Part shown: positions 8,546-59,583 of the stretch, in pieces
How positions within the stretch are numbered: position 1 is the stretch's first letter
Layout of the letters: each line of letters opens with the position of its first letter
Origin: an uncultured Mycoplasmatota bacterium
GTDB lineage: Bacteria; Bacillota_I; Bacilli_A; RF39; UBA660
DNA length: 64,000 nucleotides
Direction of reading: 5' to 3'
NCBI GenBank assembly: GCA_948467605.1
Contig: CAOKET010000003.1
Location: 9,230-73,229, forward strand
The notes under the pieces: generated by a model
What the model saw: the letters and a program-made list of their open reading frames with translations, nothing else
What the model was told of the DNA's origin: nothing
Databases searched by the model: none
Program-made: the position numbers and the translations under genes

Positions 8546-9223
8546 ATGAAAGATATTAAAAAGGTAACAGCAATAATTTTGGCTTCAGGAAATAGTACAA
8601 GATTTGGGAAAAATAGGAATAAAAACTTTGAAATAATAGATGGGAAAAGTGTATTAGTATATAGTTTAAATGAATTTGATAAGAATAAATATATAGATAA
8701 TATAGTAATTGCATGTAAACAATCAGAAATTAAAGAAGTTAAAAACATAATAGGAAATGAGAAACTCTCCAAGCACATAAATATAGTTGTAGGAGGTAAT
8801 TCCAGAAAAGAATCGGTATATAATTGCTTAAAAAATACAAACTCTGATATTGTAGTTATACATGATGGTGCAAGGCCTTTAATTAAACAAGAATATATTA
8901 ATAAATGTGTTGAAAATATTAGTGAAATTAAAGGGGTTACTATTGGTGTAAAATCAAAAGATACAATAAAAATAACCGATGAAAATAACATTGTTATTGG
9001 AACAACTAATAGAAGTAATACATGGATAATTCAAACACCACAGGCATTTGATAGAAAAATTTTGTTACAAGCACACGAGAAATATAAAGGTGATGTAACG
9101 GATGACTGTATGTTGCTTGAAGAATATGGTCATAAAGTTAAAATACTTGAAGGAGATTATACTAACGTAAAAATTACTACATATGAGGATTTAGAAATTA
9201 TAAGAGAATATTTAAAAAAATAG
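8546..9223 (+). CDS. ispD: 2-C-methyl-D-erythritol 4-phosphate cytidylyltransferase
   Basis: The N-terminus VTAIILASGNSTRFG is the IspD signature. Length 225 aa. Confidence 0.85.
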   Translation: MKDIKKVTAIILASGNSTRFGKNRNKNFEIIDGKSVLVYSLNEFDKNKYIDNIVIACKQSEIKEVKNIIGNEKLSKHINIVVGGNSRKESVYNCLKNTNSDIVVIHDGARPLIKQEYINKCVENISEIKGVTIGVKSKDTIKITDENNIVIGTTNRSNTWIIQTPQAFDRKILLQAHEKYKGDVTDDCMLLEEYGHKVKILEGDYTNVKITTYEDLEIIREYLKK

Positions 9224-9337: not shown

Positions 9338-10138
9338 ATGAGTAAATTAAAATTGTGTATATTTTCAGATATACATTATATAGATAAAAAACCAAATTGG
9401 ACTGTTAACCAAAAACTTACCGAATATTCTACTATACTTTTAGATAAGATTATAGATAAAGTTAATAATGAGATAAAACCAGATGTTTGTATATGCTTAG
9501 GAGATATGATACAGGCCTCTAAAAGTAAAGAAGATGATATAAATAATATAAAATATATATGGAATAAACTAAAAACAATCAATGTCCCATTTTTTTCATT
9601 AATAGGTAATCATGAGTTAAAGATGATGGAAAATAGTAAAGAGGTTTTAGAATTAATGGGATATGAAAGAAGTTGTTTTTCAACTGATATAGATAAATAT
9701 CATTTGATTTTTTTAGGAACAGAAATAAATGATAAAGATAAGTTGTATAGAACACAGTATTTATCTTCTGATGATTTAAAATGGATTAAAGAGGATTTAG
9801 GTTTAAATAAAGATAAGAAAATATTTATATTTTCACATTTTGGGATTGCAGAAGATGATATGAAAGGAAATTTTTGGTGTGAAAAGGATCCAGAAACAGC
9901 ATTGTTTAGAAATAGAGATGAGTTAAAAGGGTTATTATTAAAACAAAAAAATATAGTTGCAGTTTTTAGTGGACATCAACATTGGACAAAAAAACTTCAA
10001 GAAAATGGAATTTCTTATTATATTGTTGGTTCATTAATTGAAAATATAAATTCAGATGGAATTCCTGATGGAGTTTATTTTGAAGTTGAAGTAGATGATT
10101 GTAACTTAACAGTAAAAGAAAAACATTTGAGTATATAA
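9338..10138 (+). CDS. Calcineurin-like metallophosphoesterase
   Basis: Motifs CIFSDIHY, GDMIQ, GNHE and SGHQH are present. Confidence 0.7.
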   Translation: MSKLKLCIFSDIHYIDKKPNWTVNQKLTEYSTILLDKIIDKVNNEIKPDVCICLGDMIQASKSKEDDINNIKYIWNKLKTINVPFFSLIGNHELKMMENSKEVLELMGYERSCFSTDIDKYHLIFLGTEINDKDKLYRTQYLSSDDLKWIKEDLGLNKDKKIFIFSHFGIAEDDMKGNFWCEKDPETALFRNRDELKGLLLKQKNIVAVFSGHQHWTKKLQENGISYYIVGSLIENINSDGIPDGVYFEVEVDDCNLTVKEKHLSI

Positions 10139-10166
10139 TATATTTATTAAATAGTGTATAATATTT

Positions 10167-10625
10167 ATGAAAGAAAGTGAAATAAAAATGGAACTAATAG
10201 TAGGCGGTATAATAGAAAAAGATGGTAAGGTATTACTTGTACAAGAATCTAAACCAAAATGTTATGGAAAGTGGAATATTCCAGCAGGTCATTTAGAACC
10301 TAATGAAACTATAATGGAAGGTGCCATAAGAGAAATAAAGGAAGAAACGGGATGTGATGTTTGTATAACAGGGGTCTTAAGTATTGAGAATCTTTTATAT
10401 GATAGTAATACACTTATTTGTATAATATTTAGCACTAAATTATTAAGTGAATATCAACCATATAAGAGTGATGAAATACTAGATACTAAATGGTTTGAGA
10501 TAGATGATATTATTAATAATATGGATGATAAATTAAGAGATGTAGATATTATTAAACATCCAATAATAAATTATAAAAATGGTAACATATGTAATTTAGA
10601 TATTATTAATGATGTGCGTAAATAG
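10167..10625 (+). CDS. NUDIX hydrolase
   Basis: Nudix box GHLEPNETIMEGAIREIKEETG fits GX5EX7REUXEEXGU. Confidence 0.8.
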   Translation: MKESEIKMELIVGGIIEKDGKVLLVQESKPKCYGKWNIPAGHLEPNETIMEGAIREIKEETGCDVCITGVLSIENLLYDSNTLICIIFSTKLLSEYQPYKSDEILDTKWFEIDDIINNMDDKLRDVDIIKHPIINYKNGNICNLDIINDVRK

Positions 10626-48355: not shown

Positions 48356-49036
48356 ATGATTAGTACAAGCAGTTATAATAATTGGAAAAGTGACAGATAT
48401 ATAACTTATTCTATATCTGGTGATTGTGGAAAAAAAGCAGGATATATTGGAAGAAACTTTAAACAATTAGCACCTAAATTATCATTTTGGCAAGTATGGC
48501 ATGATAATATTGGTGTTATTGAAGAAGAAGAAAATAATAGATATTATATAGAACAGTATTATGAACAAGTATTATCTAAACTTGATCCAGAAGATATTTA
48601 TAGAAAGTTAGATGGTTCTATACTTTTATGTTATGAAGATAACACAGAATTTTGCCATAGACATATAGTTGCAGGATGGTTAGAAATTTTATTAAATATA
48701 GAAGTTCCAGAAAAAATAGCATACGGCTATAATGTAGAAACAGTTGAAAGACCAGATTATATTAAAGAATATTTAGAAAGTGCAATGAGAAAAAATCGTA
48801 ATATGAGGGGATTTAACTCATTAAGAGCATTATATCTATTTGAAAAAGGAGAAAAACTAGAAGAAGAGGCAGCAAGACTAAAGGAATCAAATAATGTAGA
48901 TACTTTTACTGATATAGATACAGGTGAAATAATAGTAACAGCAAGAGAATATATGCAAGAAGCATGCTATTTAAGATGTCGTGCTGATGATGCAGAAGAG
49001 GAATATAATAAAAGACGAGTTAAAGTAAAAGAATAA
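48356..49036 (+). CDS. DUF488-like protein with a C-terminal extension
   Basis: ...LLCYEDNTEFCHRHIVAGWLE... matches the conserved DUF488 core. Confidence 0.5.
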   Translation: MISTSSYNNWKSDRYITYSISGDCGKKAGYIGRNFKQLAPKLSFWQVWHDNIGVIEEEENNRYYIEQYYEQVLSKLDPEDIYRKLDGSILLCYEDNTEFCHRHIVAGWLEILLNIEVPEKIAYGYNVETVERPDYIKEYLESAMRKNRNMRGFNSLRALYLFEKGEKLEEEAARLKESNNVDTFTDIDTGEIIVTAREYMQEACYLRCRADDAEEEYNKRRVKVKE

Positions 49037-50705: not shown

Positions 50706-51962
50706 ATGGTAAAAAAATATACCATTATTTTAATACTTTTTATAAATATAATTTTAATAACAGGATGTAATAATATTAAAGATAAAAAAATAAAAGAAAA
50801 AGAAGTAGTTGAAGATGAATATATAGAAATAATACCAGATAATGCAATAAAATTCATTGAAAATCTTGATAATAGTATTATTTTAAGTACAGATGAAATT
50901 AAAGAATATAATAAAAAGATCAAAGAAAAAACTACTTTTATTTTTGATTTAAATAGTATCACTAATTTAACTAAAGAAGATGTCCTAAATTATATAAATT
51001 CATATACTATCCCAAAATTGCCTAAATATAATGGTAATAACAAAGTAACTCAAAATGATATAAAAGTTATACTAGATAATAGAAATATCGAAGGAATAAA
51101 GAATAATATAGAAATAAAAAAAGGTATTATAGTAAAAAGAAGTAATCTAAAATCTTTTCCAACAGACATTAATTTTTTTAGTCGTAAAGGTATTAATAAT
51201 TTTGATAGTTTACAAGAAACAGAATTAACAATAAATACCCCTATATTAATAGTACATGAAAGTAAAGATAAAATGTGGAATTTTGTTATATCTCCTATAT
51301 ATGTTGGATGGGTAAAAAATGATACAATAGCACTTGCTACTGATGATGATATTAATTATTTTATAAATAATACTTCATTTGGTGTAATAACAGAAGCAAG
51401 TTTAAAAATTGATGATTTAATCTTAGATATGGGTGTAAAACTGCCATATATAGGTGTATCAAAGAATAATTATCAGTTTGTAATCCCTGTTAAAGGTGAT
51501 AATAATTATGCCAAAAAGAAAGTAATTAGTATACCAAGAACTAAAGCACATATTGGGTATTTGCCATATACTAAAAGAAATGTCATAATACAAGCATTTA
51601 AATATGAAGGTATGGATTATAGTTGGGCTGGTATGAATGAAAGTGTTGATTGTTCAAGTTATATATTAAATGTTTATAAGACATTTGGTTTTACATTTCC
51701 TAGAAATACTGTAAATCAAAGGGATAGTGTAGGTAATATTACATGGCTAAATGGAAAAACAAATACTGAAAAATTAAGTATAATTTCTGATAAAAAAGTA
51801 TCTCTTATTTATCAGATAGGACATGTTATGCTATATCTAGGTACTAAAGAAGATAAACATTACATAATACATGCATCAGGTGATGATATGAAGATTGTAG
51901 TAACTGATTTAAACTCAAGAACATATCTATCTAAAATAGATAGAGTAATTACAATACCCTAA
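50706..51962 (+). CDS. NlpC/P60 (C40) cell-wall peptidase lipoprotein
   Basis: Lipobox ...LITGCNN.... The C-terminal catalytic Cys DCSSYILNVY and His GHVMLYLG...HIIHASG are present. Confidence 0.65.
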   Translation: MVKKYTIILILFINIILITGCNNIKDKKIKEKEVVEDEYIEIIPDNAIKFIENLDNSIILSTDEIKEYNKKIKEKTTFIFDLNSITNLTKEDVLNYINSYTIPKLPKYNGNNKVTQNDIKVILDNRNIEGIKNNIEIKKGIIVKRSNLKSFPTDINFFSRKGINNFDSLQETELTINTPILIVHESKDKMWNFVISPIYVGWVKNDTIALATDDDINYFINNTSFGVITEASLKIDDLILDMGVKLPYIGVSKNNYQFVIPVKGDNNYAKKKVISIPRTKAHIGYLPYTKRNVIIQAFKYEGMDYSWAGMNESVDCSSYILNVYKTFGFTFPRNTVNQRDSVGNITWLNGKTNTEKLSIISDKKVSLIYQIGHVMLYLGTKEDKHYIIHASGDDMKIVVTDLNSRTYLSKIDRVITIP

Positions 51963-51982
51963 ACTATTTTAAAATTTTAATA

Positions 51983-52012
51983 TTGACAAGCGTAAAAAAT
52001 ACGCGTATATTA
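51983..52012 (+). promoter_or_regulatory. Promoter TTGACA-17-TATATT with a 15-bp perfect palindrome GCGTAAAAAATACGC (51990-52004) in the spacer (candidate NrtR operator 1)
   Basis: A perfect -35. The inverted repeat is embedded between -35 and -10 of the NrtR-like gene. Confidence 0.6.
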
Positions 52013-52028
52013 TAATTGTGGTGATAAT

Positions 52029-52703
52029 ATGACAGTAGATAATCCACTATATAAAAACCAAGGTATTCACATTATTACATCAATATTCACTGTTGAATCG
52101 GGAATTACTAAAGTTCTACTTATAAAAAGAAAGAATGAACCATATAAAGATATGTGGGCTTTAGTAGGAGGAGCATTATATAATAATGAAGATCTTATGG
52201 ATGGAGTATATAGAGAAATATATGAAAAAACAGGTATAAAAGATATTGATATATATTTTTCTAATGTATTTGGTAAAAAGGATAGATCCCCAGTAATGAG
52301 AATGGTGGCCACGTCTTTTATTGGAGTTATTGATAGCAAAAAAGCATCAATATTAAAGGAAACCTTAAAAACATCTGATGCCTCTTGGTTTAAGTTAGAT
52401 GAAATTCCACCACTAGCATATGATCATAATGAAATTTTAACAGATGGAATAAATTGTTTAAAAGAAAGTATTTTAAGTACAAATATATTAAAATCATTAT
52501 TTCCAGATGGATTTACAATTTCAGAAATACAAAAAACATACGAAATAATATTGAATACAAAATTTGACAGAAGAAATTTTAGAAAAAAATTGCTGAATAC
52601 AAATTTAATATTTGATACAAATAAAACAAAGATATTTGAAGGTACTAAACCATCAAAAATATATAAATTTAATAAAAATTGTGATTTAAAAGATGTATTC
52701 TAA
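52029..52703 (+). CDS. nrtR: NrtR-family regulator (Nudix domain plus C-terminal winged HTH); putative ADP-ribose-responsive repressor
   Basis: A slightly degenerate Nudix box GGALYNNEDLMDGVYREIYEKTG. The C-terminal ...FTISEIQKTYEIILNTKFDRRNFRKKLL... resembles the NrtR DNA-binding domain. Confidence 0.65.
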   Translation: MTVDNPLYKNQGIHIITSIFTVESGITKVLLIKRKNEPYKDMWALVGGALYNNEDLMDGVYREIYEKTGIKDIDIYFSNVFGKKDRSPVMRMVATSFIGVIDSKKASILKETLKTSDASWFKLDEIPPLAYDHNEILTDGINCLKESILSTNILKSLFPDGFTISEIQKTYEIILNTKFDRRNFRKKLLNTNLIFDTNKTKIFEGTKPSKIYKFNKNCDLKDVF

Positions 52704-52725
52704 TACATTTTTTCTAAAAAATTAC

Positions 52726-52746
52726 CAAGTGTAAAAAATACGCTTG
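52726..52746 (+). promoter_or_regulatory. Candidate NrtR operator 2: 21-bp near-perfect palindrome CAAGTGTAAAAAATACGCTTG
   Basis: The same half-sites as operator 1. It lies 15 nt upstream of the kinase gene start. Confidence 0.55.
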
Positions 52747-52760
52747 TATAGGAGGAATTT

Positions 52761-53582
52761 ATGATAAAAAGTAATACTATATTTAGTGAAAAACAAAAAT
52801 CAGATAATGCATCTTATGACGAATATTTAAATCAAATATTTGAATCTCATCCAGAATTATTAACAAGATTAATGGAATTAAACAGAAAAAAAGAAGAAAT
52901 ACAAGAATTAAAATATAAATATGGAAACTTGCCATATCCAGTTGTAATTACAGTAAGTGGAACTCCTAGATCGGGAAAAACAACATGTATAGATAATTTG
53001 TTTGAGTTTTTTAAAAAGTGTAATTTAAGAACAACATGTTTAGAAGAACCAGCTGGGTTAATATATCAAACCCTAAAAACAAAAGAAGAAAAAAAACAAT
53101 TATTAAAGGACAGAATTGGCTTTGTAGAAAGACAATTTGAACTTGGAAATAAACACATAAATAGAAATTTAAATGAAAATGATATTATTATTTGCGATAG
53201 GGGAATAATTGATACATTTATTTGGTATGACATGTATTATAAGTTAAATATGATGGATAAGGCAAGATATAATAACTATTTTAAAAAATTAGATGAAGTA
53301 AGACAATATTGTAACTATTTCTTTGCATTATTCTCATCAAGCAATGAAGCTATTACAAGAGATTATATTAATTCATTATCTATTGAACCAAGGACTACAA
53401 TGAGCAAAGATAATATCGAAAACTATAATAACTCTTTAATGAATTGTTTATCGATTCTTTCATCAAATGTAGATTATTTACAATTTATAGATACTACAAA
53501 ATGTGATAGAATGGAAGCATCGATACTAGCGGCAAGTAGTATATCTGAAGAGATAAAAAAAATATATTTAAAAAGGAGATAA
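52761..53582 (+). CDS. P-loop kinase, nicotinamide riboside kinase-like (uridine kinase/NRK superfamily)
   Basis: The P-loop VVITVSGTPRSGKTT parallels GISGVTNSGKTT of the NRK/Udk family. It lies downstream of the NrtR-type operator. Confidence 0.5.
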   Translation: MIKSNTIFSEKQKSDNASYDEYLNQIFESHPELLTRLMELNRKKEEIQELKYKYGNLPYPVVITVSGTPRSGKTTCIDNLFEFFKKCNLRTTCLEEPAGLIYQTLKTKEEKKQLLKDRIGFVERQFELGNKHINRNLNENDIIICDRGIIDTFIWYDMYYKLNMMDKARYNNYFKKLDEVRQYCNYFFALFSSSNEAITRDYINSLSIEPRTTMSKDNIENYNNSLMNCLSILSSNVDYLQFIDTTKCDRMEASILAASSISEEIKKIYLKRR

Positions 53583-53583
53583 T

Positions 53584-54054
53584 ATGTATTTTATAGATAA
53601 AATAAAACAAGAATTTAAAAATGATAAACTATGTATATTTGCCGATATGGATGGTGTAATTACAGATTATAACTTTGGAAAACCTTTTAATTTTAAATTA
53701 AAAAGACCAATATTAACAAATATTAATACAATAAAACAATTATCTGAAATGAATAATGTAGAACTATACATACTGTCTATTTGTAAGAAAGATTACCAAA
53801 TAAGTGAAAAAAACGAATGGTTAGATAAGTATGCACCATTTTTTAATAAGAATATGAGAATTATTATTTCAAAAGAATCTAACCCTAATCTTACTAGTAA
53901 AGAACTAAAATGTAATTTTCTAAAAGGATTTATAATAGAAAATAAAGACAGTAAAGTAATACTAATAGATGATGATAATGATATACTAAAATATTTATTA
54001 GATAATATTGGAAATGAAATAACATTGTACCAAGATTCATCAATAATTGATTGA
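53584..54054 (+). CDS. HAD-superfamily 5'(3')-nucleotidase (NT5C-like)
   Basis: HAD motif I CIFADMDGVITDY. About 156 aa, as in the NT5C family. Confidence 0.6.
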   Translation: MYFIDKIKQEFKNDKLCIFADMDGVITDYNFGKPFNFKLKRPILTNINTIKQLSEMNNVELYILSICKKDYQISEKNEWLDKYAPFFNKNMRIIISKESNPNLTSKELKCNFLKGFIIENKDSKVILIDDDNDILKYLLDNIGNEITLYQDSSIID

Positions 54055-54111
54055 TATTATTATAAAATAACATTATAATTAATAATAGTTAATGTAATCT
54101 AAGGAGTATTT

Positions 54112-55869
54112 ATGAGAACAGAGTGGAATTTAAAATGCTTATATGAAGATGAAAAAAGTTGGGAAAAAGATTATAATTTTTGTGAAAAAATGATACAAAA
54201 ATTAGATTTATTAAAAAATGAATTTATAGATAATATAAAAAAATTTAGAGAATTTATAACCTTAAAAATATCGATTATTGTTTTAATAGAAAAATTATAT
54301 TGTTATTCTAGAAGACATTTAGATATTGATAGTACATTACAAGAATATAGTAAGTTATAAAAAAAAGCACTAGATTTATATAATAGTATGCAACTTATAA
54401 ATAATTATTTTGAATAGATGATAGTAAATAATACTGATAAAGTATATGAGTATTTACAAGATAATACTTTAAACAAATATAAAAGATATATAAGTTTAAT
54501 TATAAGAAGAAAAGAACATATTATAGATACTATATATGCAAAAGACATTTATCCTAATTATAAAAAGAATATGGAAACTTTAAAAACTGAATATCAGGAT
54601 TTATTTACTAATAAAATTAGTTTTAATGATGTTAAGTTAAATGGAACTAAGGTAAATGTAAATAGAGAAAACTATAATGATTTAATTATAGACAAAAATC
54701 AAAATACAAGAAAATCAGTATATGATATATATACATTTGCATTTGCAAATATAAGTGATATATTAGGTGATATGTATATTAAAAAGTTAGAATTAGACTT
54801 AATGGTTTCTAAGAAAGAAAAATATAATTCTTTATTATCTAAAAAATTATTTGAATTAGAATTACCAGATGAAATACTAGATAAATTAATAAGTACTATT
54901 AATAAAAATTTACATGTAATGCATGAATATACAGATTTAAGAAAACAATTATCAGGATTAAAAGAGTTCCACGTGTATGATTCATCTATTTCACTATGTA
55001 AAATACCAAAGATAGAATATGAATTAATAGATGCCATAAATATTATAAAATCAAGTTTATCTATATTAGGCAATGATTACATATCGATAATAGATAAAAT
55101 GTTTGATGAAGGTTGGGTTGATGTATATAGTAAAGTTAATAAAAGAACTATGTCATTTACTTGTATTTCATATGTAGGAGTACCCTATATATTAATAAAT
55201 TATAACAAATCTATAAACTCTGTAAGAACATTGGCACATGAAATAGGTCATGCAATACATGTCTATTATTCAAAAAATAACAACGATTTTGAATACTTTG
55301 AATTTAGTTATTTTTTAACAGAAATAGCATCTAAAGTAAATGAAACATTATTTAATGAATACATGATAAAAAATTGTAGTGATATAGAAGAGAAAAAATA
55401 TATTTTGAATAATATAATAAGTAGTATTGGAAACTCAATATTTGGTCAAACTATGCTTACTGAGTTTGAGCATACTGTTATAAAACGTTTAGAAAAGGAA
55501 GAAAAAGTTGATACTAATTATCTAAATGATTTATATTTAGAAATAAATAAAAAATATAATGGTAAATCATTAACAATTGATGATAATATAAAATATGGTT
55601 GGTCAAAAATTCCTCACTTTATAATGCAAGATACTTACTATATATATCAATACTCTATAGGTACATCTATTGCAGTATATATAGCATATAAAATATTAAA
55701 TAATGAAAATAATATGAAAGAAAAATATCTTAAATTTTTAAAACTAGGAAACAGTGTAAGTATAGAAGATGCCCTAAAAGTAATAGATGTAGATCTAAGA
55801 GATGGAAAATATATAGAGGATGCAATTAAAGTATTAAGTGAAAAAATAAAAGAAATGAAAAACTTGTAA
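54112..55869 (+). pseudogene. pepF: Oligoendopeptidase F (M3B, PepF-like) interrupted by two in-frame stop codons (TAA 54358-54360 and TAG 54415-54417)
   Basis: The ORFs at 54112..54360 and 54418..55869 are in the same frame. The N-terminal piece has PepF-like ...EWNLKCLYEDEKSWEKD.... The C-terminal piece has the HExxH motif HEIGHAIH. Confidence 0.55.
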
Positions 55870-55891
55870 ATAAAATCTACAAGTTTTTTTA
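55861..55891. terminator. Bidirectional terminator between pepF and the convergent minus-strand gene
   Basis: CTTGTA...TACAAG followed by T7. Confidence 0.5.
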
Positions 55892-56815
55892 CATATGATA
55901 ACTTAATGGTCTTTTTTGTATTCCTAGTGTTTCAATTGATTCATGATTTATTTGATTATCTTGACCATTAATAAAGTTTAAATAATCAATATAAGTATAA
56001 TTAGTAGTATATTTATTATCTTTATTTTGCTCATAATATAGCCCATTTCTATAAGATAAAGCAAATCCATCAAAATAATTTTTTATATTTTCTTGATTAA
56101 ATTCTATGCAACCATTTTGTAGTAATTGATATGCAAGTTGCATTCTAGAATTATTCATAATCATAAATGTACCAGGATTACAACTAACAAGACCAACAAT
56201 TCCAATTCTTTGTAGAATATTTTGACTTAAATTAAAGAACTGCGAATAGGTACAATCTATTAAATACTCCTTATTATTAATTGTTACTATAACAAAATAA
56301 TGATACCCATGCCCATCTAATAGATTAGCCTCTTCACTAAATCCAGGACTTATTTTCACTAATCTAGATTTAATACCTAAACTGTTGCATAAGTTATTTA
56401 TAAAAGTACTTACAATCTTACAATTGTTTGTTAAATCAATATCATTTATATTACAATAAGAATTACTATCAACAATAAATTTTCTAGCAATATATACAAT
56501 TTTATCTAGAATCTCTTTAACTGAAGAACATGTATCAAAAGAATCATCTAAATCAAAATTAGAATCCAATTTAATATTTGTTAGTGGAAACTTTCTAAGT
56601 AGGCTTTCACATAATATAAGTTCATTTATTAAAAATTGATATGAACTATCTATTTTACCATTAACAAAAAAATATGGACAAATGCCTTTTATAAACTCAT
56701 ATATTTCAATCATATTTGAACTTAAAATACTACTTTGATTTTGATATCTTTCAAAATTCATTTTAAGTCTACTAAATTTTTCTAAACAAACTTCAATATA
56801 GTTATATGGTTCCAT
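55889..56815 (-). CDS. Transglutaminase-like cysteine protease superfamily protein
   Basis: A putative Cys-His-Asp triad: ...INNLCNSLGIKSRLV..., ...GHGYHYF..., ...YLIDCT.... Confidence 0.5.
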   Translation of the reverse strand: MEPYNYIEVCLEKFSRLKMNFERYQNQSSILSSNMIEIYEFIKGICPYFFVNGKIDSSYQFLINELILCESLLRKFPLTNIKLDSNFDLDDSFDTCSSVKEILDKIVYIARKFIVDSNSYCNINDIDLTNNCKIVSTFINNLCNSLGIKSRLVKISPGFSEEANLLDGHGYHYFVIVTINNKEYLIDCTYSQFFNLSQNILQRIGIVGLVSCNPGTFMIMNNSRMQLAYQLLQNGCIEFNQENIKNYFDGFALSYRNGLYYEQNKDNKYTTNYTYIDYLNFINGQDNQINHESIETLGIQKRPLSYHM

Positions 56816-56988
56816 AGTAAACCCTCCAAATAATTTTATCTTATAATATTATATATTCTAATAAAAATCAATATATTAGATATTAATGATTTTATGAATA
56901 ATATATATATAATATGAATAAATGTTATTATTTTTTTAAATTTGTGATATAATACAATACATATATTTTTTTAGGGGTGAAAATAATT

Positions 56989-58407
56989 ATGTATAATGAT
57001 AAAAAACTATGTGTATTTTATAAAAAGCTTGACGATACATATGACGATATTATTAATTTAGGTGAAATTAGTACAAAAATATATAGATGGATATATGACA
57101 ATTTATATAGATTTTATCTTATTAAAGGTGAAAATAAAAAGGCACAATTTATATTAAATTTTTATGAAAACCAGTTAGAAAGAAGAAAACAAGAAAAAGA
57201 GAGTCACTTTCTTGATAGATTACAAGAAATATATCAATATTATATGAAAACAAATATAATACCTATACATGATAAAGATGCTTACTTTTCTGATGGAGTA
57301 AGTATGAAAGGTTGGTTAAATAGGCATTTATTTGAATTAGAAAAATTAAGTAAGTGTAACCAAATTGCAAAACTAATTATAGATAGTAATAAAGTTACTG
57401 AAGAGGTAAAAAATTTAAATTTAAATAGTAGAATAGATGAACTTTATGCCTACTTTAATAGTAAAACAAGTGGAAATCAAATAGATGTAAAAGATTCATT
57501 TAGTGATAATATAAATATAATTAATTGGTTAGATAAAAATATTTCAAGATTATATGAATTAAGTAATGCAGACCTAAAAATGATAATTGTTATTAATTTT
57601 TATATTAATACTAAAAGGAAGAAAAATATACTTGATAAAGATACAATAAAGAAGTTGAGTGAACTGTATTTATATGTATTAAAAAATGAACTTTTACCAA
57701 AATGTGATTCAGAAGAAAAGTTTAGTGATGGAAGTAATATTAGAAAATGGTTTGATAGTAATTTAGATATTTTAAATAGTGTTAAATGTAATAATTTATA
57801 TGCTAATGCTATATTAGCGGTGTATAGAATAGAAAATAAAAAAAATAATTTTTTTAAAATTAATCTATCAAAAATAGATGAGGTTTATAATATATGTAAA
57901 AATAAACCAATATATTATATTTTTAAAAATAATATCAAGTTTGAAGATGGAACAGATATGAGTTCATGGATTAAAACAAATATTGGACTATTAGAAGAAT
58001 TAAAAGAAAAAAACAAAAAAGCAAGAAAAATATTAGATAGTATAAATGAATATAATATTCTTAATAAAAAACTAGAACAAATAGAATGTCTTAAAAAGAG
58101 TTTAGAATTTAATAAAAAAATATTAGGAATTTATAACTATTGTGTTTCAAAAAAAAGTTTGCCTACTAGATATAGTGATTGTAAACTAAATAACGGATAT
58201 AGTATGGGATGTTGGTTAAATAATAATAAATTTAAAATATGGGATGAAAGATTTAGAAATCCATATTGTTTAAAACTAATCAAAGAGATACTAGAAATAA
58301 ATCCTGAATTTTTTACAAAAACAAATAGTTGTGATAATACTAAAACAACATATAATAAAATTTCTACTAAAAGAATAAAATTATTAATAAATAGTAGAAA
58401 ATTATAA
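56989..58407 (+). CDS. Tandem-repeat protein with ~60-aa repeats (FSDG..M..WL motif), possibly helicase-associated (HA) domain-like; paralog A
   Basis: Five repeats of the form ...Y.YY.K...LP......FSDGS/T.M..WL..N...L.....N. The ORF track starts at the GTG at 56977; the ATG at 56989 has proper RBS spacing. Confidence 0.5.
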   Translation: MYNDKKLCVFYKKLDDTYDDIINLGEISTKIYRWIYDNLYRFYLIKGENKKAQFILNFYENQLERRKQEKESHFLDRLQEIYQYYMKTNIIPIHDKDAYFSDGVSMKGWLNRHLFELEKLSKCNQIAKLIIDSNKVTEEVKNLNLNSRIDELYAYFNSKTSGNQIDVKDSFSDNINIINWLDKNISRLYELSNADLKMIIVINFYINTKRKKNILDKDTIKKLSELYLYVLKNELLPKCDSEEKFSDGSNIRKWFDSNLDILNSVKCNNLYANAILAVYRIENKKNNFFKINLSKIDEVYNICKNKPIYYIFKNNIKFEDGTDMSSWIKTNIGLLEELKEKNKKARKILDSINEYNILNKKLEQIECLKKSLEFNKKILGIYNYCVSKKSLPTRYSDCKLNNGYSMGCWLNNNKFKIWDERFRNPYCLKLIKEILEINPEFFTKTNSCDNTKTTYNKISTKRIKLLINSRKL

Positions 58408-58416
58408 GGTGTATAT

Positions 58417-59583
58417 ATGGATGATAATTTTAGAAAACCTCAAAAATATTCAATAAAATTTTATTTAAAACTAGATTATTTATATGAAATGCTTAAAAAT
58501 GATAAAAATTATCTAGAAGATGTAGATACTAAGCGTTTTTATGATGGTACTAAAATTTCTAATTGGTTAAAAGATAATTTATATAAATTAGAAAGACTTA
58601 AAGACGAAAATATAAAAGCAAAGTATATATTAGATATTATAAACAATAAAAAAAATGATGGAAAACCACAAAAATTTTATAAAAAATTAGAAGAAGTATA
58701 TAAGTATTATTTAAAAACAGGTACACTTCCAACTTTTAGTGAAAAAATTTTGTTTGAAGATAAAACTAATATGTATAATTGGTTAATAAGTTATATGATT
58801 AAATTAGAATTAATAAGAGACGAAAATAAAATGGCAAATGCTATATTAACGGAATATAGAAAAAGTGACATGCGAGAAAATAATTTTAATGAAAAATTAA
58901 AACAGGTATATGAGAGTTTTAAAAATAATGATGGTTTAAACTCCAATCAAGTTATGTTATTTAGTGATGGAACCAGTATTAATAACTGGATAAAAACATA
59001 TAGTAATAGAATGCGTGAAATAAAAGATGAAAACGAAATGGCCTATGCTATATTAAGTATTATAGATGAAAGGAATAAGGAACAACAACATAAAGCTTTT
59101 AATGAAAAAGCAGAAGAAATATATGAGTATTATCTAAGAACTGATGATTTATTAATGGAAGGAAAAAGTGCAAAATTTAAAAATGAAATGAGATATAAAA
59201 ATTGGCTTATTAATATGTGGAATTTAAAAACATTAAAGAACATGAATAAAAGGGTATATAAATTAGCACTAGCACAACTTCTTAATAAAAGTTTATTGTA
59301 TGATAAAAAACTACTTGAAACATATAAATATTGCATAACTACAGGTAGAATACCAAATGAATATACTAAAAGTAAATTTACTAATGGACATGATATGGGA
59401 ACATGGTTAAGAAATAATAAGTATTTTATTTGGGTAAAAAAGAAAAATAATCCATATTGTATGTTGTTGGTTAAAGCAATATTAGAAATAAAACCTAAAT
59501 ATTTTAATTGTTATATTAGTGATAAAGAAGATAAATTAACAACAAGTAAACAAAATAAAGTATTATTTAAAATAAGAAAATGA
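58417..59583 (+). CDS. Tandem-repeat protein, paralog B
   Basis: The same repeat architecture. The C-terminus (...RNPYCMLLVKAILEIKPKYF) parallels paralog A. Confidence 0.5.
   Translation: MDDNFRKPQKYSIKFYLKLDYLYEMLKNDKNYLEDVDTKRFYDGTKISNWLKDNLYKLERLKDENIKAKYILDIINNKKNDGKPQKFYKKLEEVYKYYLKTGTLPTFSEKILFEDKTNMYNWLISYMIKLELIRDENKMANAILTEYRKSDMRENNFNEKLKQVYESFKNNDGLNSNQVMLFSDGTSINNWIKTYSNRMREIKDENEMAYAILSIIDERNKEQQHKAFNEKAEEIYEYYLRTDDLLMEGKSAKFKNEMRYKNWLINMWNLKTLKNMNKRVYKLALAQLLNKSLLYDKKLLETYKYCITTGRIPNEYTKSKFTNGHDMGTWLRNNKYFIWVKKKNNPYCMLLVKAILEIKPKYFNCYISDKEDKLTTSKQNKVLFKIRK

Follow-up and report, generated by a model that had tools for sequence, protein, structure and literature searches.

The stretch of DNA analyzed here, 64,000 nucleotides from an uncultured Mycoplasmatota bacterium (contig CAOKET010000003.1; hereafter the window), contains three co-directional genes that fill positions 52029-54054 and encode a Nudix plus winged-helix regulator of the NrtR family, a P-loop kinase, and a HAD phosphatase. 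Together with their regulatory sites, these genes probably form an autoregulated repressor cassette that controls a (deoxy)nucleoside or nucleotide kinase paired with a nucleotidase, for which candidate substrates and a candidate effector can be proposed. Comparisons with related genomes indicate that the predicted switch governs enzymes of thymidine and deoxynucleotide metabolism rather than vitamin B3 (nicotinamide adenine dinucleotide, NAD) salvage. The initial annotation of the locus was headed as a salvage switch for nicotinamide riboside (NR) and nicotinamide mononucleotide (NMN), a proposal that finds no support in fold matches, profile alignment (hhalign), domain fusions, the cargo of the clade, or the search for NAD genes. 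The alternative that it named, a deoxynucleoside kinase and a deoxynucleotidase in the control of deoxynucleoside triphosphate (dNTP) pools, is the reading favored by fold, fusions, and regulon. The features of the locus are as follows.

51983-52011, forward strand: promoter of the nrtR-like gene, with a -35 element TTGACA (51983-51988), a 17-nt spacer, and a -10 element TATATT (52006-52011)

51987-52004, no strand: predicted operator O1, CAAGCGTAAAAAATACGC, which fills the promoter spacer; exact match to the operator motif

52029-52703, forward strand: nrtR-like gene, 224 aa, with an N-terminal Nudix-like domain and a C-terminal NrtR-type winged helix

52688-52713, forward strand: conserved hairpin, terminator- or attenuator-like, AAAAGAUGUA-UUCUAA-UACAUUUUUU, followed by an A-run

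52726-52746, no strand: predicted operator O2, CAAGTGTAAAAAATACGCTTG, directly 5' of the kinase ribosome-binding site; exact match to the operator motif

52750-52755, forward strand: ribosome-binding site of the kinase gene, AGGAGG, read directly from the sequence

52761-53582, forward strand: P-loop kinase gene, 273 aa; AAA_28 subfamily, with a fold like that of deoxynucleoside kinases (dNK) and thymidylate kinases (TMPK)

53584-54054, forward strand: gene for a small, apparently capless HAD phosphatase, 156 aa, starting 1 nt after the kinase stop codon

The product of the first gene belongs to the NrtR family. Both of its domains score above the Pfam cut-offs (NrtR_WHD, 2.3e-17, 63 bits against a cut-off of 27; NUDIX, 4.8e-12), and its best solved relatives, in full-length alignments, are Bacteroides thetaiotaomicron AraR (5bs6, 1.9e-27) and Shewanella NrtR (3gz5, 1.3e-16). 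These matches bear out the initial description of an NrtR-like Nudix and winged-helix protein with a DRRNFRKK motif. Against the NCBIfam model of the NrtR equivalog (NF050029), the regulator scores 124.5 bits, below the curated cut-off of 400, and it is therefore a member of the family and not an orthologue of the characterized NrtR. NAD homeostasis is the role for which the NrtR family is known, with side branches devoted to pentose use and phosphoribosyl pyrophosphate. Family membership stands despite the absence of an NAD regulon, because non-NAD regulons, such as that of AraR, are already known in the family. The Nudix box of the regulator reads REIYEKTGI, with K in place of the second E of the EE pair, and both REIxEKxGI and FDRRNFRKK are invariant in 12 orthologues that are 62-77% identical. 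Orthologues of the regulator far outnumber those of the kinase: there are 2141 matches at E <= 1e-20, and the best 120 listed are all at least 65% identical.

The nrtR promoter is the best promoter-like match in the region, agreeing with the consensus at 11 of 12 positions. The core of the operator in its spacer, GCGTAAAAAATACGC (51990-52004), is an interrupted inverted repeat (GCGTA-AAAAA-TACGC) with 5-bp arms. The second operator has 8-bp arms with one T/G mismatch, a core GTGTAAAAAATACGC at 52729-52743, and an end 14 nt before the kinase ATG at 52761. Both sites were located correctly in the initial annotation; the first had been described as a 15-bp perfect palindrome in a perfect-consensus promoter and is instead an interrupted repeat in a near-consensus one, and the near-perfect 21-bp second site had been placed 15 nt, rather than 14 nt, before the next gene. 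An 18-mer common to the two sites, CAAGYGTAAAAAATACGC, occurs in the 64 kb only at 51987 and 52726, even with 3 mismatches allowed; 0.11 occurrences are expected by chance, and none of 100 shuffled sequences gave two or more. No other regulon members were found in the window, the sole further motif match (2 mismatches, at 8826) being at chance level. The majority of NrtR sites are palindromes of 21 bp built around a conserved GT-N7-AC core (PMC2330246), and GYGTAAAAAATACRC and GTAAAAAATAC match GT-N7-AC exactly, that is, they carry the operator core of the NrtR family. Between the hairpin and O2, a separate kinase promoter is represented only by weak AT-rich matches that are indistinguishable from background.

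For comparison, 80 loci gathered via the regulator alone were added to those found via the kinase, and 84 non-redundant loci were analyzed. In the 15 genome loci that were found via the kinase, the operator motif is again present at both positions. An operator lies upstream of nrtR in 55 of 83 loci, 52 of these having it inside the spacer of a TTGACA...TATAAT promoter. In 30 of 74 loci, whatever the cargo, nrtR and the first cargo gene are separated by a second operator, which mostly ends 14-20 nt before the start of that gene. In loci that lack the second operator, the gap between nrtR and cargo is mostly <50 nt, which argues for a plain operon behind an autoregulated promoter. The consensus of 44 distinct sites upstream and 27 downstream of nrtR is AWGYGTA-N5-TACRCWT (19-21 bp), in which G-T-A and T-A-C are invariant and the Y and R positions vary independently in all four combinations, including a non-pairing C/A in 7 of the 71 distinct sites. 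Such independent variation argues for two half-sites read by a protein dimer and not for an RNA stem. The palindrome that the initial annotation had proposed to look for at orthologous loci is conserved there, and its reading as an operator stands; as far as sequence comparison goes, O1 and O2 behave as genuine, evolutionarily conserved predicted operators.

The conserved hairpin between regulator and cargo overlaps the nrtR stop codon, its arms in DNA being AAAAAUGUA...UACAUUUUU. Across 12 loci it has 10 predicted pairs, 4 of them with compensatory changes, and it is retained in two loci (L010, L015) where the protein stops earlier, so that coding alone does not explain it. A simple terminator scan misses the hairpin, which is too AT-rich, and an Rfam scan of 51800-54300 found no known RNA elements. 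In appearance the structure is a weak AT-rich terminator or attenuator, which would set expression of the regulator apart from that of the cargo. The RNA fold of 52680-52765 (-18.3 kcal/mol, z -3.4) contains two hairpins, the second of which raises the question of whether O2 is mainly an RNA hairpin in the kinase leader, acting on stability or translation, rather than a protein-bound operator. O2 does fold as an 8-bp stem with one G-U pair directly 5' of the ribosome-binding site. Its pairing outside the 5-bp core is not conserved in orthologues, however, and the four Y/R combinations, the non-pairing C/A among them, also speak against a stem; what is conserved is a sequence rather than a covarying structure, and it equals the site in the untranscribed promoter spacer. 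An RNA role as the main function of O2 is quite improbable, and the operator reading is retained.

The clade-wide regulon has a thymidine and deoxynucleotide character. Across the 84 loci, the cassette (promoter with O1, nrtR, hairpin, and O2) precedes differing, interchangeable cargo, of which thymidine kinase (TK; Pfam TK, ~1e-25) is the commonest (31 loci), followed by His_Phos_1 phosphatase (28 loci), AAA_28 kinases (27 loci), the HAD (12 loci, always with a window-type kinase), HD-CYTH or HD-CYTH-kinase proteins (9 loci), and two tandem dCTP deaminases with a viperin/MoaA-like radical-SAM protein (3 loci). The AAA_28 kinase of 365-389 aa that occurs with His_Phos and TK is homologous to the window kinase (hhalign, 94.8%), and the dCTP deaminases pass the TIGR02274 cut-off. 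The recurring theme is "kinase + phosphatase (+ TK)", in which the phosphatase is either the HAD or the His-phosphatase. The trio of NrtR, kinase, and HAD is kept in about 13 divergent loci of metagenome-assembled genomes (MAGs), and the HAD follows the kinase in 12 of the 12 kinase-bearing loci of the cargo survey. Individual loci add further partners: locus L051 has the order NrtR-CYTH-TK-Tmk, with a canonical Tmk that is 30% identical to E. coli Tmk; L005 has the order NrtR-unknown-kinase-HAD-TK-AAA_28; TK adjoins the HAD gene in L005 and L006 and lies ~1.1 kb downstream in L021; and ThyX comes directly after the HAD in L020. In the literature searched, no paper was found that links NrtR with thymidine kinase or describes such regulon content. 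A tblastn search with E. coli NadR, NadA, PnuC, PncB, NadD, and NadE found no homologue in the window and 111 related loci (1.09 Mb), niaP not being queried; the earlier remark that nadR and pnuC are absent from the window agrees with this result.

Some cassettes carry less familiar cargo. In L042 (5735-10305; also in L064 and L079), the cassette precedes a 559-aa radical-SAM protein (PADLOC pVip "associated with kinases", 5.9e-12; MoaA, 7.7e-11), the two tandem dCTP deaminases, a His-phosphatase, and two unknown proteins, and the L064 locus additionally has an AAA_28 kinase. Three recurrent cargo families of ~175-196, 191-232, and 199 aa, with no Pfam match, stand under the same operator (L102, 6728-7255; L104, 2858-3517; L110, 2342-2941; L046, 1787-3572; L005, 5325-5900; and L120), and one of them is also found between nrtR and the kinase (L005) and between TK and the HD gene (L120). 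In L056, L080, L105, and L107, the genes for rplS (L19) and signal peptidase come directly after the NrtR orthologue; these four loci, without recognizable cargo and without a strict upstream operator, may be cargo-less or divergent cassettes.

The window kinase begins with a helical hairpin (residues 4-54) and carries the motifs SGTPRSGKTT (the P-loop), EEPAG, CDRGIID, and RDY...R, with 24 invariant residues. AAA_28 (1.5e-12) is its sole Pfam family above threshold, and KTI12 and the NCBIfam dTMP kinase are among the models that remain below. An AlphaFold (AF2) model built from 27 homologues has a predicted local distance difference test score (pLDDT) of 91, and its best Foldseek matches in the PDB are the deoxyadenosine kinase (dAK) of M. 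mycoides (2jat, 1.3e-6) and that of Giardia. Further matches are bacterial, yeast, and Plasmodium thymidylate kinases, the Drosophila deoxynucleoside kinase (Dm-dNK), and human deoxycytidine kinase (dCK); for the dAK, TMPK, dNK, and dCK matches, the Foldseek probability is 1.00, E is ~1e-6, and the target-normalized template modeling score (TM) is 0.6-0.74. A viral structure library returns dNK and dTMP kinases, the same families as the PDB, and the PHROG matches of the kinase are to "thymidylate kinase" families. In hhalign, 83 columns that include the P-loop, EP, and DR motifs align with E. coli Tmk (probability 51%). The overall fold, as modeled, is that of the deoxynucleoside/thymidylate kinase type.

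This fold bears directly on the proposal that the trio is an NR/NMN salvage switch, in which an NR kinase and an NMN 5'-nucleotidase would be controlled by an NrtR responding to ADP-ribose or NAD status. NAD genes are the targets, and ADP-ribose the effector, of most NrtR-family regulators characterized so far (PMC2330246). The window regulator has an almost intact Nudix box. AAA_28, moreover, is the Pfam/InterPro family containing the ribosylnicotinamide kinase domain of NadR, which favors the proposal and counts against a deoxynucleotide enzyme. Set against these points, the hhalign alignment of the kinase with E. coli NadR covers only 23 columns, confined to the P-loop (probability 6%), and no entry described as NRK1, NadR, or uridine kinase is in the Foldseek top 50; the P-loop of the initial annotation is confirmed, and a likeness to NR kinases or uridine kinases that reaches beyond it is not. 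The six E. coli NAD proteins have no homologue among the sequences searched, and since the conversion of NMN to NAD needs an NMN adenylyltransferase, the lack of a match to NadR and NadD, the sole ones queried, weighs further against the proposal. Deoxynucleotides are indicated instead, both by the domains found in fusions (SAMHD1-like HD, CYTH) and by the enzymes encoded in the operons (TK, Tmk, ThyX, dCTP deaminase). The salvage switch is thus highly improbable, and an NR kinase was rejected as the primary assignment on the grounds of Pfam, the alignment with E. coli NadR, the fold search, and gene context.

The close family of the kinase is small (61 clusters at 90% identity) and has three architectures: the kinase alone, a CYTH-kinase of ~462 aa, and an HD-CYTH-kinase of ~870 aa. 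The HD part of the fused forms is of the SAMHD1/EF1143 dNTP-triphosphohydrolase type (EF1143, 2o6i, 1.1e-17; SAMHD1, ~1e-12). The middle domain has the ExExK motif and no Pfam match, and was recovered by profile comparison with the PDB (BH2851 CYTH, 2gfg, 4.5e-6; E. coli YgiF, 8.9e-4); the clear CYTH protein in L051 also supports its CYTH identity. An exhaustive profile search (E <= 0.001) brought in 905 more distant cluster representatives, many of which are fused to a C-terminal Nudix-like domain or to HD_4 (the Pfam HD family of the RelA/SpoT hydrolase type), or are duplicated, and some of which give weak Pfam dNK matches (7.9e-9). All domains attached to the kinase are nucleotide phosphohydrolases. 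Among the distant relatives (P0225, P0232, P0242, P0281, P0200, P0207, and P0216), fusions of ~460 aa that join the kinase to a C-terminal Nudix-like domain with a RELxEELG box make up a large group, and others are HD_4-kinase fusions, HD-HD_4-kinase fusions, and tandem double kinases; the contigs of the kinase-Nudix and HD_4-kinase fusions are too short for gene context to be read. The kinase family was not found in IMG/VR viral contigs, where only distant relatives of the HAD (24-32% identity) occur, and a phage origin was rejected on this basis.

The HAD gene starts 1 nt past the kinase stop codon, which is consistent with translational coupling. Motifs I-IV of its product are invariant in 37 sequences (D21-M-D23-G-V, S65, K97/K109, and D129-D130-D131, DDDN), and its AF2 model (pLDDT 94) is essentially capless, with just a short insert after motif I. 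The best E-values overall are to the human mitochondrial and cytosolic 5'(3')-deoxyribonucleotidases (mdN and cdN), with mdN (1q92) at the top (1.6e-4; TM 0.48/0.39), and several homologues of the HAD carry a precomputed match to PF06941 (NT5C). The NT5C label is suggestive and not established: the DMDGV motif noted initially is invariant, and the NT5C assignment built on it is sub-threshold. The family is much wider than that of the kinase, with 585 matches, none named beyond "hypothetical protein", and the HAD also occurs as a stand-alone gene; upstream of the stand-alone homologues in other Firmicutes the operator is absent. Two stand-alone homologues that are 53-59% identical to the window protein and have no operator (L023, 6001-12418; L024, 6001-10361) lie beside defense- or mobile-type genes, namely SLFN_AlbA_2 with HATPase_c_4, Abi_2, SMODS with SLATT, KilA-N, and a Cas12f/TnpB-like gene.

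In the mechanism proposed for the locus, the NrtR-family repressor would bind as a dimer to the two AWGYGTA-N5-TACRCWT operators. Occupancy of O1, between the -35 and -10 elements, would repress nrtR and everything transcribed from its promoter, whereas O2 would add a second block before the kinase ribosome-binding site, either by halting read-through as a roadblock or by covering a weak internal start. The hairpin over the nrtR stop codon would attenuate read-through, so that the levels of regulator and cargo would be uncoupled. A small-molecule effector, which may be nucleotide-like, would act on the Nudix-like domain and release the repressor; by analogy with the characterized NrtR and AraR, the protein would repress when unliganded and be released by its ligand. 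The known effectors of these relatives are ADP-ribose (NrtR) and L-arabinose (Bacteroides AraR; PMC4666351). The kinase and the probably translationally coupled HAD would phosphorylate and dephosphorylate a deoxynucleoside or deoxynucleotide, probably in the thymidine/pyrimidine branch, and the size of a deoxynucleotide pool would be set by the resulting kinase/nucleotidase substrate cycle. Fold, fusions, and regulon make a deoxynucleoside or deoxynucleoside monophosphate (dNMP) the most likely substrate of the kinase and a dNMP that of the HAD. Repressor polarity, effector, exact substrates, and physiological role are given here as we infer them.

A number of observations weigh against this reading. 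For the kinase, Thymidylate_kin (PF02223) is sub-threshold (19.2 bits against 27), Pfam dNK (PF01712) gives no match to the window protein, and the structural matches are modest, with a target-normalized TM of ~0.7 at 12-19% identity. For the HAD, Pfam NT5C falls below threshold (E 0.01; 16.1 bits against 24.8), the model lacks the NT5C helical cap, and by TM the protein is nearer to the 3'-phosphatase of T4 Pnkp (5uj0, 0.64/0.69) than to NT5C enzymes. A window-type kinase with a HAD is missing from all 80 loci that were selected solely for similarity of the regulator, which makes the window cargo a minority variant, and because the window has no TK, HD, or CYTH gene, the link to thymidine rests on other genomes. 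A co-expressed kinase and phosphatase acting on one substrate would, moreover, be a futile cycle unless their specificities differ. Finally, an immune role is also compatible with exchangeable cargo among which dGTPase-like, dCTP-deaminase, and viperin/MoaA-like genes occur.

The likeness of the HAD to T4 Pnkp suggests another pairing, in which the kinase would act on 5'-OH ends and the HAD on 3'-phosphates of RNA or DNA, with CYTH as an RNA triphosphatase in the fusions. Such an end-healing pair would account for the TM of the HAD to T4 Pnkp and to Pnkp1 (4xru/4xrp, 0.65 by query length; HisB-N is another of its top TM matches), for a PHROG "polynucleotide kinase" match of the HAD (5.3e-6), for weak Pfam matches to HAD_PNKP and KTI12, and for the adjoining kinase and phosphatase genes. 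No polynucleotide kinase, however, is in the top 50 matches of the kinase model, and no ligase, Hen1, or RtcB partner is seen among the annotated neighboring genes. The HD domain of the fusions belongs with the SAMHD1/EF1143 dNTPases, and TK, Tmk, ThyX, and Dcd, as partners, are enzymes of free nucleotides. End healing is a very improbable role for the pair, and action on free deoxynucleotides remains the favored one.

An inducible antiviral or conflict module is an unlikely explanation. On this view, the cassette would act as a sensor and, upon infection, induce exchangeable effectors of the nucleotide pool: dNTP triphosphohydrolase with triphosphatase, dCTP deaminases, a viperin-like radical-SAM protein, and kinase/phosphatase pairs, including the window kinase and HAD. 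The regulator is 60-84% identical among closest homologues and surveyed loci, yet its cargo is highly variable and its neighborhoods are unrelated. The HD cargo matches the PADLOC dGTPase model (5e-11) and the NCBIfam anti-phage dGTPase model, the dCTP deaminases are in tandem, and the radical-SAM protein matches the PADLOC model for viperins associated with kinases. Stand-alone HAD homologues lie beside Abi_2, SMODS/SLATT, and SLFN-like genes, and the fusions of kinase relatives to Nudix, HD, HD_4, and CYTH resemble those of nucleotide-centered conflict systems. On the other side, PADLOC-DB v2 has no model that matches the window kinase or HAD, its matches being just to the HD of fused homologues and to the radical-SAM protein elsewhere, and the kinase family is absent from IMG/VR viral contigs. 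The commonest cargo is an ordinary TK, and canonical Tmk and ThyX are present, which gives the regulon the look of housekeeping salvage. For the radical-SAM protein, the matches to MoaA and to viperin are about equally good and far below cut-offs, and the cut-off that the dCTP deaminases pass (TIGR02274) is a housekeeping one. A known defense system was rejected, PADLOC being blank for kinase and HAD.

A broader formulation of the favored, repressor-controlled arrangement is offered tentatively, as one that is possible but on the doubtful side. The nrtR gene, operator promoter, hairpin, and O2 may together constitute a "plug-in" sensor cassette of uncultured gut and rumen Bacilli that has captured at least six nucleotide-pool cargoes, as follows.

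Cargo types of the putative "plug-in" cassette: TK; AAA_28 with His-phosphatase; AAA_28 with HAD; SAMHD1-like HD with CYTH; tandem dCTP deaminases with radical-SAM; families with no Pfam match

Were this so, the kinase and HAD would constitute a new pair of enzymes for adjusting deoxynucleotide pools as the need arises. Should the Nudix domain, in addition, respond to a deoxynucleotide or to a metabolite linked to infection (e.g., ADP-ribose), the cassette would represent a regulon of a new type, for dNTP pools or antiviral defense.

The chromosome segment around the locus has a GC content of 24% and carries ordinary housekeeping genes as well, among them pheST, ispD, and a D-Ala-D-Ala carboxypeptidase. 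The locus was found again on four ENA metagenome contigs, in which the kinase and HAD proteins are 100% identical to those of the window, and its relatives are confined to MAGs of uncultured Bacilli/"Tenericutes" type from gut and rumen. No flanking genes outside the cassette and its cargo are conserved; neighbors vary from locus to locus. One of the metagenome variants (L003, 5226-5940) has a disrupted nrtR, called as 193 aa with a break in homology between residues 172 and 198, beside a kinase and HAD that are still 100% identical to those of the window, and may be a natural regulator-null (derepressed) variant.

Downstream of the operon, an oligoendopeptidase F (Peptidase_M3) gene (54112-55869, forward strand) is broken by an in-frame TAA at 54358 and a TAG at 54415, with coding-like sequence between the two stop codons. 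Three of the four independent metagenome contigs (L001-L003) split it likewise into 82 aa and 483/494 aa, and L004 breaks it otherwise, into 38 aa and 483 aa; the interrupted gene is a pseudogene or a recoding site. It is followed by a 308-aa protein with a weak papain-like toxin match (55889-56815, reverse strand; Tox-PLDMTX, 7e-4) and then by two paralogues of 476 and 388 aa with no Pfam match (56977-59583, forward strand). On the upstream side, a 226-aa protein (48356-49036, forward strand) with weak matches to DUF488-N3a and an ABC-3C system C-terminal domain precedes the methyltransferase and NlpC/P60 gene that flank the operon. Far from the operon, at 9338-10625 (forward strand), a second, stand-alone Nudix hydrolase (152 aa; NUDIX, 1.2e-20) comes directly after a calcineurin-like metallophosphoesterase; an NrtR-type operator was not found near it.

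A large clade of regulators in control of TK, Tmk, dCTP deaminase, dNTPase-like proteins, and pairs of kinase and phosphatase would bring deoxynucleotide metabolism into the range of the NrtR family and would imply a Nudix-fold sensor for a new ligand. The locus also offers a genomic handle on two protein families: an AAA_28 kinase family in which fusions to hydrolase domains (Nudix, HD, HD_4, and CYTH) recur, and a widespread capless HAD family of ~150 aa. It likewise provides an entry to the question of how gut Bacilli with small genomes, probably reliant on salvage, balance their dNTP pools or deplete them against phages.

The system resembles several that are already characterized, and differs from each. 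NrtR of Shewanella oneidensis and Synechocystis (Rodionov et al. 2008, PMC2330246) has the same layout of Nudix-like and winged-helix domains and an operator of ~21 bp with the GT-N7-AC core, and in several lineages an NrtR site lies between nrtR and the first target gene and nrtR is autoregulated (PMC2330246), as is predicted for the window locus. In contrast to NrtR, the present regulator falls below the NCBIfam equivalog cut-off, a conserved hairpin lies between regulator and cargo, and the predicted targets are TK, Tmk, AAA_28 kinases, phosphatases, HD-CYTH proteins, and dCTP deaminases, with no detectable homologues of NAD genes. The AraR of B. thetaiotaomicron (5bs6; PMC4666351), the closest solved relative by sequence, is a precedent for a pathway other than NAD and an effector other than ADP-ribose; AraR, however, controls arabinose utilization in Bacteroidota, whereas the cassette described here precedes nucleotide enzymes in a Bacilli/Mollicutes-like lineage.

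Enzymes of the dNK/TMPK fold (2jat, Dm-dNK, dCK, and TMPKs) have the order of P-loop, E-P, and D-R motifs in common with the window kinase, which differs from them in its low identity (12-19%), its extra N-terminal helical hairpin, and its assignment to AAA_28 by profile. The Arg within its P-loop (GTPRxGKT) presumably reflects a resemblance to type I thymidylate kinases. With NadR, the kinase shares AAA_28 at family level, and the alignment with the ribosylnicotinamide kinase domain of the E. coli protein is limited to the P-loop; unlike NadR, it has neither an NMN adenylyltransferase domain nor a pnuC neighbor. In the mammalian TK1-cdN and TK2-mdN cycles, a kinase and an NT5C-like HAD nucleotidase that act on deoxypyrimidine nucleotides set dNTP pools. 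The window HAD has its best E-values to these same nucleotidases, mdN and cdN; in contrast to the mammalian enzymes, the window pair is predicted to be co-transcribed under one repressor, and the HAD model lacks the NT5C helical cap.

The SAMHD1/EF1143 dNTPases and CYTH enzymes such as E. coli YgiF are related to domains that occur in homologues of the window kinase, and neither domain is present in the window protein itself. A dNTPase releases inorganic triphosphate, which CYTH enzymes can hydrolyze. Plant TTM1 and TTM2 are P-loop kinases fused to CYTH (PMC9582702), and the homologues of the window kinase differ from them in domain order. The family of the regulator and operators of this kind are thus known already; what is new is the content of the regulon, the cassette with its swappable cargo, and the kinase and HAD families.

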